In this document: positions 2,335-49,601 of the stretch, one piece after another
Position numbering within the stretch: position 1 is the first letter of the stretch
How the letters are laid out: each line of letters begins with the position of its first letter
NCBI GenBank assembly: GCA_040377305.1
Contig: JBEIPA010000034.1
Location: 1 to 54,916, forward strand
Origin: Flavobacteriales bacterium
GTDB taxonomy: Bacteria > Bacteroidota > Bacteroidia > Palsa-965
Direction: 5' to 3'
DNA: 54,916 bases
Notes under the pieces: generated by a model
Told to the model about the DNA's origin: nothing
The model's input: only the letters and a program-made list of their open reading frames with translations
Databases searched by the model: none
Program-made: the position numbers and the translations under genes

Positions 2335-2958
2335 ATCGCAGCTCCATTTAACAAGAAGCCCTTTGGCACTGGTCCTGGAAGACCATTCACACCGGGCGGA
2401 TCACGTCCACCATTTAATCGTGGACCACGCACACCACGCGTAAAAGAAGAATTGCACCGCATCAACGAAAAAATTCGTGATGTAACTCAGGTGCGTGTTG
2501 TAGGCGAAGGCATTGAGCCTGGCGTTTACGCAATCTCAAAGGCACTCGAGATGGCTAAAGAAGCCGAACTCGACCTTGTGGAGATAGTAGCCGGAGCAGA
2601 TCCTCCCGTATGTCGTATTGTCGACTACAAGAAGTTTCTTTACGAACAGAAGAAGAAACAGAAGGAGATCAAGTCTAAGGCACAAAAAGTGGTCGTGAAA
2701 GAAATCCGATTCGGTCCACAAACCGATGATCACGATTTCAATTTCAAGAAAAATCACGCGCTCCGCTTCCTTGAAGAAGGTGCGAAAGTGAAAGCATATG
2801 TAATGTTCCGCGGCCGATCAATCGTGTTCAAGGAACAAGGTGAAATTCTTTTGCTGCGTTTTGCACAGGAGTTGGAAGAGTTCGGGAAAGTTGAAGGACT
2901 TCCACAGCTCGAAGGCAAGCGTATGCAGATGATGATTGCGCCTAAAAAGAAAAAGTAA
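2335..2958 (+). CDS. infC: Translation initiation factor IF-3, probable non-canonical ATC start
   Basis: IF3 motifs ([40 protein letters not shown]). The frame is open upstream of the track's TTG 2452 to ATC 2335, which follows GGAGGT. Confidence 0.95.
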
Positions 2959-3090
2959 TTCGAAGATTCGAAAATTTGAAGATTTGAACGTGGACCCGGC
3001 TAAATAAGTCGGGTCCTTCTTTTTTGCGGAAATTCGGGCAATATCACCAGTATTTCCTCGAATTTTCAAATCTTCAAATCTTCGAATTTT
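2959..3090. repeat. Inverted pair of degenerate 8-bp arrays (TTYGAARA) enclosing a terminator
   Basis: ttcgaaga ttcgaaaa tttgaaga tttgaa at 2959-2988; reverse-complement array at 3058-3090. Confidence 0.75.
2992..3025 (+). terminator. Intrinsic terminator after infC
   Basis: ggacccggc-taaataa-gtcgggtcc followed by ttctttttt. Confidence 0.8.
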
Positions 3091-43640: not shown

Positions 43641-43734
43641 GGAATGGAGATTGAGGGATTAGGGGAATAAGGGATTAGGGGATTCAGGCCAACTTCATGC
43701 CCAAATCCCCTAATCCCTTAATTCCTTAATCCCT
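43641..43734. repeat. Inverted pair of degenerate 8-bp arrays (GGGATTAG / CTAATCCC)
   Basis: gggattag gggaataa gggattag gggatt ... aaatcccc taatccct taattcct taatccct. Confidence 0.8.
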
Positions 43735-45337: not shown

Positions 45338-46393
45338 TTAGTTCTTCTTTCTGTAGAATTCCGAAAGAGTCGCGGTGAGTGTAAACGTATTCGTTCCGCC
45401 TGCGATGTGATAGCGCGCGTGTGCGTAGCTGAAATGGAATTTGTAAACACGGAACCCCACTCCGAATGAGAATCCGGTCATGCCACGACGTGTATCAACG
45501 AGCATTTCTTTGCGACGCTGATAATTGTAACCCAGGCGGATTGAAAATGCTTTACCGATGAGAATTTCTCCTCCGAAAACCATGTGACGTGCGAGTTTAT
45601 CGCCGAAGGTTTTGAATTTGCTGACTTTGATTGAATCGCCTGTGAGCGGATCAACGAGTTGTGGCGGATTATTCGGATCTGTGTAGGTCAAATCCCATTG
45701 CTGTAAATGCTGCAGTCCCAATGAAAAGCGGAACGGCATGTGTTCCGGCTTGAACGAGAATCCTGACTCAATTTCAAAAGGAAGTTTCTCGTCATTGCCT
45801 GCTGTGTATTGCTTCATCACAAAACCAATGTTGCGAATGAGGAAGCTAACGGAGAAATTTTTTGCTGGCAAATTGTAATTCAATCCGAGATCCATGGCCA
45901 GTGCATTTGCATTCCACAAATACATGTTCGACTGCATGAATTTCAGATTCGCACCCACGCTGAAGTTGCTGTCAATCTGACGACCGTAGCCGAGATTGAT
46001 TCCGTATTCACCGGCAGTAAATTCTCCCAGAATATTTCCAGACTCATCGGTCTCGCGGAACGTTCCATAGTCAATACGCGTTGCAAAAACAGAAAATGTG
46101 CTTTTGCTATCGAAGCTCCAAGCTCCACCTGCATAACCGTATTTAATGTCGGAGAAATAATCCGCAAAACTGATTGCCAGCTGGCTCGTCATTTCCGGAC
46201 GAAGCAAAGCCGGATTCCAGATCGCTAGGTTCAGATCATTGTCGTTGATGCCACACGATTTTCCGCCCAAGGCAGCCATACGTGCCGACATGGGTAGATC
46301 AAGAGAAACAAAAATAGAAGATCCTCCAATCTGCGCCGAAAGGCCAGAAAAAGTCAGGAAAACGATAGCAATCGAAAGAAGTCGTCTCTTCAT
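45338..46393 (-). CDS. porQ: Type IX secretion system protein PorQ
   Basis: SARMAALGG, NPALL, DYGTF..TDE.G...G.F, HMPFRFS, LGYNYQRR; downstream of lon. Confidence 0.88.
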   Translation of the reverse strand: MKRRLLSIAIVFLTFSGLSAQIGGSSIFVSLDLPMSARMAALGGKSCGINDNDLNLAIWNPALLRPEMTSQLAISFADYFSDIKYGYAGGAWSFDSKSTFSVFATRIDYGTFRETDESGNILGEFTAGEYGINLGYGRQIDSNFSVGANLKFMQSNMYLWNANALAMDLGLNYNLPAKNFSVSFLIRNIGFVMKQYTAGNDEKLPFEIESGFSFKPEHMPFRFSLGLQHLQQWDLTYTDPNNPPQLVDPLTGDSIKVSKFKTFGDKLARHMVFGGEILIGKAFSIRLGYNYQRRKEMLVDTRRGMTGFSFGVGFRVYKFHFSYAHARYHIAGGTNTFTLTATLSEFYRKKN

Positions 46394-46507
46394 GGTGTGC
46401 GTTCCAAAGATAGTGTAGACCGCTTAAAAACGAAGGGAAAAGGGAAATATTGTGCTCCGGAGGAGACTTCGGTCAAGTGGCAGTTGCAGTCAGTTTTCAG
46501 GTCACAT

Positions 46508-46592
46508 TCGGGAGCAAACGCTTACAAATGTTTACAAACGACTACAAACGTTTACAAATACTTACAATCGACTATAAACGTTTGTCTCCCGA
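46508..46592. repeat. 7 x 10-bp tandem array clamped by TCGGGAG/CTCCCGA
   Basis: caaacgctta caaatgttta caaacgacta caaacgttta caaatactta caatcgacta taaacgtttg (46515-46584). Confidence 0.88.
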
Positions 46593-46624
46593 CTATTCCA
46601 ATTAACGTGAGATATGTTTGCTGC

Positions 46625-47017
46625 ATGGAAAATAAATACAATGGCTATGAGAGTCTGATGGCATATCAGAAGGCCTGGAAACTAGCAAACGAACTTTATG
46701 CGCTCTCCAAATCGTTCCCCGAAGAAGAAAAGTACTCGCTTACCGATCAGGTCCGACGATCATCGAGATCTGTTTGCACCAATATTGGTGAAGGCTATCG
46801 GAAACGTCGGTATCCAAAACATTTTGTCAGTAAAATGAGTGACGCAGACGGAGAAATGACCGAAACACAAATATGGATCAACTTCGCGTTTGAATGCAAA
46901 TACATCAATGTAACGAAGTACAACGATTTGAGCGACCAAGCTGCACAAGCCGGTAAACTCATCGGATTTATGATCGACAATCCTGGAAAATTCGGATGTC
47001 CTCCAGAGAAAGATTAG
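46625..47017 (+). CDS. Four helix bundle protein (23S rRNA intervening-sequence protein / bAvd-like family)
   Basis: L.AYQKA, FPEEEKYSLTDQVRRSSRSVCTNIGEG, E..ETQ.W..FA..C.YI; start trimmed to ATG 46625. Confidence 0.93.
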   Translation: MENKYNGYESLMAYQKAWKLANELYALSKSFPEEEKYSLTDQVRRSSRSVCTNIGEGYRKRRYPKHFVSKMSDADGEMTETQIWINFAFECKYINVTKYNDLSDQAAQAGKLIGFMIDNPGKFGCPPEKD

Positions 47018-47025
47018 GTAATATC

Positions 47026-47069
47026 AAAGGGAGAAACTTGACAACCCAAATTTCTCCCTTTATTTTTTT
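47026..47069 (+). terminator. Intrinsic terminator after the four-helix gene
   Basis: aaagggagaaa ... tttctcccttt followed by a T run. Confidence 0.7.
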
Positions 47070-47120
47070 ACTGCCCGCTGACTGCAACTGCAACTGCGAC
47101 TGCCACTATTCCGTGGTTTT

Positions 47121-49601
47121 CTAGTCCACCTTCTTCAACTTCGACTCCTCCGGCACAATCACATTAATCGCCGACTTCACCTTCTCTTTAAGCAACGCAT
47201 GCGTCAACACATCGCCCATCTTACGGACATAATGGAACGTCAAACCTTTCAGGTAATCCTGTTTGATTTCCTGAACGTCCTTGCGGTTGTCTTCACAGAG
47301 AATGATTTCTTTGATGCCGGCACGTTTTGCTGCGAGAATTTTTTCGCGGATACCACCCACTGCGAGTACTTGTCCGCGTAAAGTGATTTCGCCGGTCATG
47401 GCTAAGTGCTTTTTCACTTTGCGTTGGGTGAATGCACTTGCAATCGCAGTCAGCATTGTGATTCCTGCCGACGGACCATCTTTCGGTGTTGCGCCTTCGG
47501 GAACGTGAACGTGTACATTCCAGTGATCGAACAGCATCGGGTTGATTCCGAATTCGTCACCGTGAGCACGCAGATATTCTACAGCAAGTACAGCAGATTC
47601 TTTCATCACTTCACCGAGATTTCCAGTGAGTGTGAGCTTTCCTTTTCCTTTGCTGAGACTTGTTTCTACGAAGAGAATATCTCCGCCAACTGCAGTCCAT
47701 GCAAGTCCTGTAACTACACCAGCAACATCATTGCCCTGATAACGGTCTTTTTCGTGAGCAGGTCCGAGAATCTTTTGCAAATCATCAGAAGATGGTTTCA
47801 CAACGTACTTCTTCTTCATCGCAATGTTCTTCGCTGCATAACGAATCACTTTACCAATGAGTTTCTCGAGTCCGCGCACACCTGATTCGCGTGTGTAGTT
47901 CTCGATCATATATTCGAGTACAGTATCGCTAATGGCAATCTGGCTTTTCTTCACGCCGTGATCGTCCATCTGTTTCGGAATCAAATGTCGTTTCGCGATT
48001 TCGAGTTTCTCTTCGGTAGTGTAGCCGGTTACTTCGATAATCTCGAGACGATCGCGCAATGCAGGCTGAATGGTAGAAAGCGAATTCGCTGTTGCAATGA
48101 ACATCACATTCGACAAATCGTAATCGAGTTCCACATAGTTGTCGTAGAATGTGCTGTTCTGCTCCGGATCCAAAACTTCAAGCAATGCAGAAGACGGATC
48201 ACCGTGCCAGTCGTTTCCAACCTTATCAATTTCATCAAGTACAAATACCGGATTCGATGTTCCCGACTTTTTGATGTTCTGCAGGATACGTCCGGGCATT
48301 GCACCAATGTAAGTTTTGCGGTGACCACGAACTTCAGATTCATCTTTCAATCCGCCGAGCGACATGCGCACATATTTTCTTCCGAGCGATTCAGCAATCG
48401 ATTTTCCAAGCGACGTCTTCCCTACTCCCGGAGGTCCGTAAAGACAGAGAATTGGTGAGCGCTTCATATCGCCTTTCAATTTGATCACGGCGAGATATTC
48501 GAGAATGCGTTCTTTCACTTTCTCCATTCCGTAGTGATCGCGATCAAGAATGGTTTGAGCTTTGCGCAGGTCGAAACGATCTTTCGTCATTTCGCCCCAC
48601 GGCAAATCGAGAAGAAGCTCGAGGTAATTGATGAGTACCGAATACTCTGCAGCATTCGGATTCATTCGCTCTAGCTTGGCAATATCTTTTGTAAACGCAG
48701 CACCAACAGGCGCAGGCCAAATCTTATTTTTCGCTTTCACTTTCAGCTCAGCAATCTCCTGCTCCATCGGGTTGCCACCCAATTCTTCCTGAATCGTTTT
48801 GATCTGCTGGTGAAGGAAATATTCGCGCTGTTGTTTGTCGAGATCGACTTTCACTTTCGACTGAATCTGATTCTTCAGTTCCAGCATCTGAAATTCTTTC
48901 GTGAGCTGCCCGAGCACTTCAATTGAACGCGCTTTCAGATCACCGATCTCGAGAATTTTTTGTTTCTCCGCCGACTCGGCATTCAGATTGGAAGAAATGA
49001 AATTGATCAGAAATCCTGGGCTATCGATATTCTTGATCGCCATCTGTGCTTCCTGTGGTATCTGTGGATTGATCTGAATAATCCGCTGCGCCATATCCTT
49101 CACAGAAGAAATGATCGCAGAAAATTCTTTGTCGCTCTTTGCCGGCTTCGTGTCTGGAAATGCAGTGATCGTTGCCTTCATGTACGGCTCACTCTGCGTT
49201 TCGTTACCAAGTACGAACCGACGTTTTCCCTGCATGATCACCGTCGTGTTTCCATCGGGCATGCGCAACATTTTGATAATGTATGCAACCGTTCCGACTT
49301 TATGGAGTTCATCAATTTTCGGATCTTCAGTCGCGTCATTCAGCTGTGCTACAACTCCAATTGTGCGATTCGATTTGTGCGCGTCTTTAATGAGCTTAAT
49401 AGATTTGTCACGACCAACCGTAATTGGAATCACAACACCGGGAAAAAGAACTGTATTTCGGAGTGGAAGTATCGGTAATTCTTCAGGCAGCTTCTCATTA
49501 TTCATCTGCTCCTCATCCTCACTACTCATCAACGGAATAAACTCCGTTTCTTCTTCTATCGGTGAAAAATTCAACATATCAGGGAATTGCTTGTTGTTCA
49601 T
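47121..49601 (-). CDS. lon: ATP-dependent protease La
   Basis: [34 protein letters not shown], catalytic Lys in GGIREK. Confidence 0.98.

Follow-up and report, generated by a model that had tools for sequence, protein, structure and literature searches.

A four-helix-bundle gene between porQ and lon forms an inserted cassette with inverted word arrays that recur as gene-less hairpins in a Flavobacteriales genome

A 54,916-nt contig of a Flavobacteriales bacterium (JBEIPA010000034.1 of assembly GCA_040377305.1; referred to below as the window) was analyzed around the spacer between porQ and lon, where a gene of the four-helix-bundle family PF05635 (23S_rRNA_IVP; hereafter IVP) is flanked by two mutually inverted arrays of short repeated words, termed "arms". 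The gene and its arms constitute a discrete unit, and the genome to which the window belongs (G000) contains gene-less twins of this unit having the same polarity. We regard the unit as a self-contained, inserted cassette and hold, with moderate confidence and on the strength of sequence comparisons, that its four-helix protein may well recognize the CAGT-core word, both in its own arms and in those gene-less hairpins that carry it.

The cassette comprises the following parts, all on the + strand:

46476..46500, +, left arm of GCAGTN-type hexamers (AGTGGC AGTTGC AGTCAG TTTTCAG), CAGT core in coding-strand orientation; located by inverted-repeat search, inner end from alignment with the gene-less hairpins C24, C53, and C44
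46515..46601, +, leader module: 10-bp-period TTACAAACG-like array and CCCGACTA box, a dispersed promoter-like module (Tandem Repeats Finder (TRF), period 10, 6.9 copies)
46613..46620, +, predicted -7 promoter box TATGTTTG, read from the sequence; 4 nt before the ATG, with the same spacing in the ortholog from the related genome G015
46625..47017, +, IVP (four-helix-bundle) gene; matches to PF05635, TIGR02436, and 2gsc/2rld, and a dN/dS of 0.06 against the G015 ortholog
47026..47068, +, intrinsic-terminator-like hairpin and T run, between the IVP gene and the right arm
47069..47107, +, right arm, the complement of the left-arm words (ACTGCC CGCTGAC TGCAAC TGCAAC TGCGAC TGCCACT); located by TRF and inverted-repeat search

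An earlier note on this DNA had described inverted arrays bounding the gene, complementary ends able to pair, and a promoter box and terminator belonging to the gene itself; all of these were recovered. Repeat searches paired positions 46476-46493 with 47078-47095 (18 nt, 94% complementary, 584 nt between them) and placed a hexamer array at 47081-47107 on the right side (TRF period 6, 4.5 copies, 90% matches). Comparison with gene-less copies extended the left arm to 46500 and set the start of the right arm at 47069. The arm stem closes the minimum-free-energy and centroid folds predicted for both strands (z -4.8 and -3.8). Between the arms, the order is the TTACAAACG-like array proper (46515-46583, ca. 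7 copies, lying between the left arm and the promoter and missed by the earlier note), the TATGTTTG box, the IVP gene, and a terminator stem (47026-47040/47047-47061; 15-nt arms, 93% complementary, 6-nt loop) that is followed by the T run. The Bacteroidota -7 consensus is TAnnTTTG, and the position of the box, 4 nt before the ATG, predicts a near-leaderless IVP mRNA. Neither arm would lie on the gene's predicted own transcript (promoter box to terminator), so looping out would be possible only in read-through transcripts or in DNA.

The earlier note had read the locus as a minimal mobile or excisable element. A discrete gene-plus-arms insertion with arms that pair in predicted folds survives from that view. 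An excised form was considered and rejected: the apparent joints in DNA contigs, from 46494/46500 to 47063-47078, proved to be paralogous, gene-less GCAGTN hairpins of the same organism (C10, C24, and others).

The spacer holds an intact + strand open reading frame (ORF) of 130 codons. Its 130-aa product exceeded the curated thresholds of both PF05635 (2.2e-31, 108.6 bits, cut-off 33.8) and TIGR02436, "four helix bundle protein" (1.6e-28, 99.1 bits, cut-off 24). The nearest solved structures by sequence were PDB entries 2gsc (7.6e-10) and 2rld (1.7e-6), both of which contain five chains, and by homology to them the protein is probably a pentamer. Q42, S49, N53, E56, and E80 are invariant among seven aligned paralogs. 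The ORF, its family matches, and the profile matches of its neighbors agree with the earlier description of a 130-aa four-helix gene antisense to lon and porQ, which are themselves co-directional. That note had also found no transposase, integrase, or reverse transcriptase (RT). None was present among the ORFs of the window between 42 and 50 kb or in or adjoining the cassette, and the RVT_1 profile had no match anywhere in the 99.99%-complete genome G000 (60 contigs). A search of 45900-47600 against Rfam, rRNA included, gave no match at E values up to 1, and PADLOC returned no defense-system match for the cassette.

Corresponding lon-porQ spacers were recovered from 13 relatives, a set that omits three genomes with 2.7-5.3 kb between lon and porQ. 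The same cassette was present in only one (G015). Seven spacers were short and empty (61-137 nt) and had no GCAGTN array (G018, G009, G017, G004, G005, G006, and G055, the last from another family); gene-less hairpins of other words occupied two (G011 and G024), and unrelated genes filled three. The cassette is a discrete insertion that is absent from most relatives; the empty sites that the earlier note had proposed looking for exist, and the locus is not stably syntenic. The G015 ortholog is identical at 115 of 130 residues with a dN/dS of 0.06 at a dS of ca. 1, hence the gene has long been kept by selection. The protein is under strong purifying selection, and at this divergence the cassette has had a long history of vertical inheritance at lon-porQ. 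Both arms are longer in G015 by ca. 12 nt (about two hexamer units), a change in the same direction; its leader differs by one 10-nt unit, and its terminator has one G/C fewer on each side of the stem, a compensatory change. Across the genomes of the genus, the copy number of PF05635 genes ranges from 0 to 15.

Within the genus, small inserts have a hot spot in the lon-porQ spacer; those observed were as follows:

G013: two small minus-strand ORFs and unrelated repeat arrays
G024: a 252-aa ORF and a CACAGATT hairpin
G019: a 207-aa ORF
G022: a 382-aa membrane acyltransferase-like ORF
G011: a gene-less hairpin

The otherwise empty spacer of G018 has two GACAACT units in the last 20 nt before the lon stop; these could be an arm remnant, an arm seed, or chance.

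Nine PF05635 genes were found in G000. Visual inspection showed short-period arrays in mutually inverted orientation on the two sides of eight of the nine, and the 6-8-nt word differs from pair to pair. As flank score we took the closest inverted match, over a window of 16 nt, between the two 250-nt flanks, and 1873 crudely called genes served as controls. Scores of at least 15/16 were obtained for 7/9 paralogs and 38/1873 controls; at a threshold of at least 14/16, the respective figures were 8/9 and 75/1873. Inverted flanks thus exceed chance and are a property of the paralogs as well, whose lack of them the earlier note would have counted against its proposal. In G024, inverted periodic arms were seen by eye at all 12 IVP loci for which both flanks were available, and 25 of 36 IVP loci in a sample of the genus scored at least 13. 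Among IVP loci of other species, 20 of 35 reached 14 in the inverted orientation vs. 2 in the direct one, and for 57 metagenome loci of another subfamily the counts were 26 inverted and 10 direct. Pseudogenized and truncated IVP genes lie inside the arms in relatives. The most divergent paralog (C46b; G000 C46:191307-191900) has further copies of both arm words downstream, resembling stacked hairpins of one word.

Word hairpins were enumerated from TRF arrays (period 5-12, score at least 28) that paired at a minimum of 13/14. In G000, this census yielded 130 inverted array pairs within 3 kb, compared to 86 direct pairs. Loops shorter than 200 nt characterized 113 of the inverted pairs, and only 2 had loops of 200-400 nt; five of the eight pairs with 300-600-nt loops hold IVP paralogs. 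Because the census missed the present cassette (its left arm is short) and the paralogs C38 and C46b, hairpin counts are lower bounds. The hairpins fall into about a dozen word families. Arms of resident IVP cassettes were matched (at least 13/14) by 63/113 of them, and those of G024 cassettes by 10/113. Of the 55 hairpins whose polarity could be judged, 54 agree with the cassettes: the word occupies the 5' arm, and the 3' arm carries its complement. Four GCAGTN hairpins (C24, C53, C44, and C10) have near-identical arms with the same inner ends as those of the cassette under study; in these, 6-40 nt replace the 568-nt cassette interior, and one retains a terminator-like stem. According to crude gene calls, 108/113 hairpins lie between genes: 43 occupy tandem spacers, 34 divergent ones, and 31 convergent ones; those in tandem spacers sit near the upstream stop codon (median 4 nt). 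We tentatively favor loss of cargo as the route from cassette to gene-less hairpin, given the pseudogenes within arms, the terminator-like stems in loops, and the hairpin-free empty sites; the paucity of intermediate loop sizes suggests that short hairpins also multiply on their own.

Two host-looking ORFs of G000 were noted between inverted arrays of one word: an OsmC-like ORF of ca. 140 aa (C46:164687-165318) and a 188-aa ORF (C7:79399-80016).

The association of word and protein was examined beyond the genus by a locus scan in which the single window protein was the query and one genome per species was used, which gave 37 loci. The word count was the number of CAGT occurrences in the 200 nt upstream plus that of ACTG in the 200 nt downstream; the opposite arrangement was the control, and the G015 ortholog was excluded. 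For the 18 loci with at least 53% identity, the mean word count was 8.4 vs. 0.72 for the control, and 17/18 had counts of at least 4. Below 53% identity (16 loci), the mean was 1.75 vs. 1.0, with 2/16 reaching 4. The 18 loci cover ca. 10 lineages, among them Algoriphagus, several Bacteroidales, Sphingobacteriaceae, Mucilaginibacter, and Ignavibacteria; across these loci, the words differ in unit length and in their remaining letters but have the CAGT core and its polarity in common. The core of the word stays with the protein lineage across phyla. In metagenomes, a second subfamily (that of paralog C46a, word AATGTGCT) had GCTAAT at 3/4 loci of at least 61% identity and at 0/53 below, and the words of this subfamily shift stepwise with divergence.

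Genomes with and without IVP genes were then compared for hairpins. Seven genomes formed the basis of the census, and for G002 the sampled stretches were taken from IVP-bearing contigs:

G016: 0 IVP genes, 400 kb sampled, 0 hairpins
G006: 0 IVP genes, 313 kb sampled, 0 hairpins
G004: 0 IVP genes, 213 kb sampled, 0 hairpins
G026: 1 IVP gene, 384 kb sampled, 1 hairpin (atypical)
G002: 14 IVP genes, 400 kb sampled, 9 hairpins
G024: 13 IVP genes, 400 kb sampled, 44 hairpins
G000: 9 IVP genes, 5.18 Mb, 113 hairpins

The three same-genus genomes in this list that have no IVP gene thus contributed 0 hairpins in a combined 926 kb of sampled sequence. Four genomes of the genus have no IVP gene (G004, G005, G006, and G016; three are 99-100% complete and one is 72% complete). 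TGCTAAT arrays, searched in whole genomes, occurred in 15/27; all 15 carry IVP genes, and the four IVP-less genomes had none. With G012 left out, such arrays were present in 13/15 genomes with at least four IVP genes vs. 1/11 with fewer. Counts of GCAGTN hexamers across the genus were noisy (controls reached 13, and one-mismatch matches occurred in IVP-less genomes); they were clearly raised only in G000, G015, G013, G022, and G007, and their correlation with total IVP number was weak (rho 0.27).

The proposed explanation has the following steps. A putative pentameric IVP protein would bind the word arrays, and this binding, by analogy with RAYT and REPIN, might maintain or spread the hairpins although the element has neither a transposase nor an RT of its own. 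The gene-less hairpins would be cargo-less copies of cassettes. In minus-strand transcripts that cross the element from lon to porQ, the arms would pair into a stem of ca. 20-25 bp; RNase III may cut this stem, as it does in 23S rRNA intervening sequences (IVSs), and such cutting would allow the insertion to be tolerated. Expression of the IVP gene would rely on the promoter and terminator inside the cassette and yield an arm-free mRNA. The connection between protein and arms is likely, if indirect, in that it runs through the word's following of the protein lineage. A broader form of the proposal, to which we adhere only tentatively, is that IVP proteins in general are sequence-reading partners of repeat words, each lineage specifying its own 6-9-nt word and keeping a population of foldback hairpins with no transposase or RT of its own.

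Several observations weigh against a word-reading IVP protein. The predicted isoelectric point of the 130-aa protein is 7.6, unlike that of Avd, a strongly basic relative. Paralog C45 has no arms, and host genes also lie between inverted arrays (3/8 pairs with 300-600-nt loops). No resident cassette is matched by 50/113 of the G000 hairpins; among the G024 hairpins, 24/44 match that genome's own cassettes and 20/44 match those of G000, word families being common to both. G024 has 52 TGCTAAT-array hits, yet TGCTAAT arms were present at 0/12 of its examined IVP loci. Other words accompany those homologs within the genus that are 50-54% identical to the window protein, so the word marks a lineage rather than an identity threshold. 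Across the genus, TGCTAAT arrays correlate about as well with Y1_Tnp copy number (rho 0.62) as with IVP copy number (0.64), and the correlation with IVP could in part reflect general repeat richness; moreover, the genomes compared are kin rather than independent, and the IVP-less ones probably represent only two lineages. No target-site duplication beyond chance was detected at the 113 hairpins, whose ends are fuzzy (adjacent direct repeats measured 0 nt at 59 of them, 1 nt at 39, 2 nt at 13, and 3 nt at 2). Finally, complementarity was compared between a hairpin's own arms and across hairpins in the two tightest families, the others being too loosely clustered; the values were 16.6 vs. 15.4 and 14.8 vs. 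14.8. The two arms of one hairpin are thus no better complements of each other than arms taken from different hairpins, so pairing as such may not be what selection maintains.

This last result also bears on an alternative that we consider unlikely but credible, namely that the cassette is purely an RNA-level intervening sequence. The arms would then fold the insert out of host transcripts, acting as an RNase III site or insulator; the protein would have another role and would not read the word, and the gene-less hairpins would be decayed cassettes. Such an account draws on an architecture equal to that of ORF-bearing 23S rRNA IVSs, on the closing stem in the predicted folds of both strands, on the presence of the RNase III gene (rnc) in the genome, and on the pseudogenized or truncated IVP genes within arms of relatives and the terminator-like stems kept in some loops. 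Pairing alone, however, needs neither a conserved word core nor a fixed polarity across phyla, and it is at odds with the equal complementarity within and between hairpins of a family. The near lack of intermediate loops (2 at 200-400 nt against 113 below 200 nt) also counts against this account, and the hairpins are equally frequent in divergent spacers (34/108 of those that are intergenic), where there is no read-through.

Host regulation, in which the hairpins would be terminators, insulators, or mRNA-stability elements and the IVP protein an autoregulated, trans-acting factor for hairpins of its own word, is decidedly unlikely. The strong purifying selection on the protein, the concordance of word and protein, the intergenic position of 108/113 hairpins, and their median distance of 4 nt from the upstream stop in tandem spacers would all suit a regulon. 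Copy number nevertheless varies from 0 to 15 within one genus, four genomes have no IVP gene, close relatives have this spacer empty or occupied by other words, divergent spacers are not avoided, and pseudogenes are many. Because copy number varies, spacers are found empty, and pseudogenes occur, selfish elements fit better than a regulon.

It is also improbable, to a similar or somewhat greater degree, that the hairpins came first, i.e. that word hairpins are an independent repeat class into whose loops IVP genes home, as they do into the loops of 23S rRNA hairpins, the arms belonging to the target. No hairpins were present in the sampled parts of IVP-less genomes, and the empty lon-porQ sites have no GCAGTN hairpin. 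No homing enzyme is evident (there is no RT, and Y1 is uncoupled), and the link between word and protein lineage across phyla would still call for a word-reading protein. This order of events would account for the excess of gene-less hairpins over cassettes (113 vs. 9), the position of the cassette precisely where a canonical GCAGTN hairpin has its apex, and the gene-less hairpins of other words in the same spacer of relatives. Last, next to no probability attaches to the protein's being an Avd accessory protein of a diversity-generating retroelement (DGR) that has lost its partners: the weak bAvd similarity (PF22296, 4.2e-10; the Avd equivalog NF033474, 1e-10) includes an NF033474 score of 41.8 bits that is far under the cut-off of 80, the genome-wide lack of an RT contradicts it, PADLOC gave no match, and no template/variable repeat pair was seen near the gene.

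Y1 transposases were considered as mobilizers of the cassettes and rejected. Y1 genes are present in all four IVP-less genomes, and none was found in G022, which has 13 IVP genes; the two are uncoupled by presence and absence, though their copy numbers correlate. In G000, tandem arrays of a ca. 45-nt REP-like palindrome of the CCCTGCAGGAGTTAAACGCTTGCAGGGT type lie beside HUH-motif ORFs (C8:24760-24982 and C22:26450-26547) that match no Pfam family at 1e-3; these arrays and ORFs look like a separate REPIN-RAYT-like system.

The leader module of the cassette is dispersed as well. It consists of the TTACAAACG array and the CCCGACTA box, the latter ca. 22 nt before the TTTG box. Eight more copies were found in G000, upstream of Y1-transposase-like, single-stranded DNA-binding protein (SSB), exonuclease, and IVP genes, at these positions:

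C19:139541-139593
C38:2348-2389
C1:519-553
C7:52068-52151
C52:107586-107670
C52:210424-210479
C8:23961-24029
C22:26306-26347

The Y1 (IS200/RAYT-like) transposase genes that it precedes are boxed by REP-like palindromes; it also precedes two SSB genes, a PolB-exo-like 3'-5' exonuclease gene, and three IVP genes. Matches occur across many genomes of the genus, and the order of leader module and arms differs from cassette to cassette. The array was examined as a candidate SOS box and matched neither of the Bacteroidetes motifs, GGA-N5-TCC and CTAA-N5-TTAG, given in the part of PMC8565304 that was consulted.

The genes neighboring the cassette and two further word hairpins of the window are listed here; the lon stop is 14 nt from the right arm:

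45338..46393, -, porQ (PorQ of the type IX secretion system), left neighbor, outside the element; NF033711, 7.6e-106, 353.9 bits vs. cut-off 220
47121..49601, -, lon protease, right neighbor; Lon_C 1.5e-80, LON_substr_bdg 9.4e-51, AAA 3.5e-25
2958..3087, no strand assigned, gene-less hairpin of the ATTCGAAG family; TRF census, 72-nt loop with a terminator-like stem
43649..43733, no strand assigned, gene-less hairpin of the GGGATTAG family; TRF census, 15-nt loop

Among known systems, REPIN-RAYT offers a close parallel. There, the gene of a REP-associated tyrosine transposase (RAYT) is flanked by hairpin repeats that are also dispersed without a gene; the repeats are lineage-specific, and the systems are largely vertical in descent and patchy between relatives. 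The repeats flanking the IVP gene likewise equal dispersed gene-less hairpins, as the match and polarity counts given above (63/113 and 54/55) attest. The IVP protein, however, belongs to the small four-helix-bundle proteins and lacks an HUH/Y1 motif, and the flanked gene is not a Y1 transposase; in place of a single palindrome there are arrays of 6-9-nt words, and the Y1_Tnp genes of the genus do not track IVP. MITEs and foldback transposons have inverted-arm, non-coding copies that outnumber the coding ones, and their arms are made of tandem sub-repeats. Short inverted-arm non-coding copies outnumber coding copies here too, with tandem sub-repeats in the arms, but the cassette has no transposase gene and no target-site duplication was detected. 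The Avd protein of DGRs (bAvd, PDB 4DWL) belongs to a homologous four-helix-bundle fold family and is the nucleic-acid-handling partner of a selfish element; unlike a DGR, the present genome has no RT and no template or variable repeat, and the protein's score is below the Avd equivalog cut-off.

The ORF-bearing IVSs of 23S rRNA (Coxiella, Leptospira; S23p ORF), as described in the consulted sections of PMC4990558, share with the cassette the PF05635 family, a sporadic distribution, the lack of a transposase, and an inverted-repeat stem of 20-30 bp around an ORF loop of ca. 400-600 nt. The same sections report a 28-bp terminal stem cut by RNase III in the Coxiella IVS, a homopentameric S23p protein from Xanthomonas, and reductive evolution of the Coxiella IVS ORF (PMC4990558). 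The present cassette, by contrast, encodes a protein under purifying selection. It lies between two protein genes and not in a 23S rRNA helix, the location that defines these IVSs; its arms are tandem arrays of short words, it has its own promoter module and terminator, and it is accompanied by more than 100 gene-less hairpins.

Repeats of comparable form have been published. The heptamers of Xanthomonas and Nostoc and the STRR heptamers of cyanobacteria are likewise intergenic arrays of 7-nt words (PMC4692102). In Xanthomonas, inverted GGGAATC heptamers make up 70-75 convergent pairs able to form stem-loops, and their length varies between close relatives; the Nostoc repeats are GGGGA(T/C)T, and the work on both sets concerned their formation of G-quadruplexes (Rehm et al. 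2015, PMC4692102). Neither "S23" nor "intervening" occurs in the text of PMC4692102, which draws no link to IVP; the solved IVP structure 2GSC is that of a Xanthomonas campestris protein. The consulted portion of PMC4679880 treats TAACTGA arrays of Beggiatoaceae, cyanobacteria, and Bacteroidetes with no reference to the IVP gene family.

A search of the full-text literature, with subscription journals and supplements outside its scope, returned no paper that connects word arrays with the PF05635 genes they flank. Bacteria very commonly encode PF05635/TIGR02436 proteins, and two structures have been solved. We know of no function for the family outside the DGR helper Avd, and to our knowledge it has gone unexplained for 30 years. 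The locus and genus data tie the IVP family to intergenic arrays of 6-9-nt words that have been published as unexplained repeats. If the protein does read the word, the two would form a transposase-free and RT-free partnership of protein and repeat comparable to RAYT-REPIN. IVP proteins would then have a function, their sequence specificity being naturally diversified across a family of small proteins, and the heptamer and octamer arrays of Bacteroidota, Xanthomonas, cyanobacteria, and many further bacteria would be the footprint of one widespread, undescribed kind of element.

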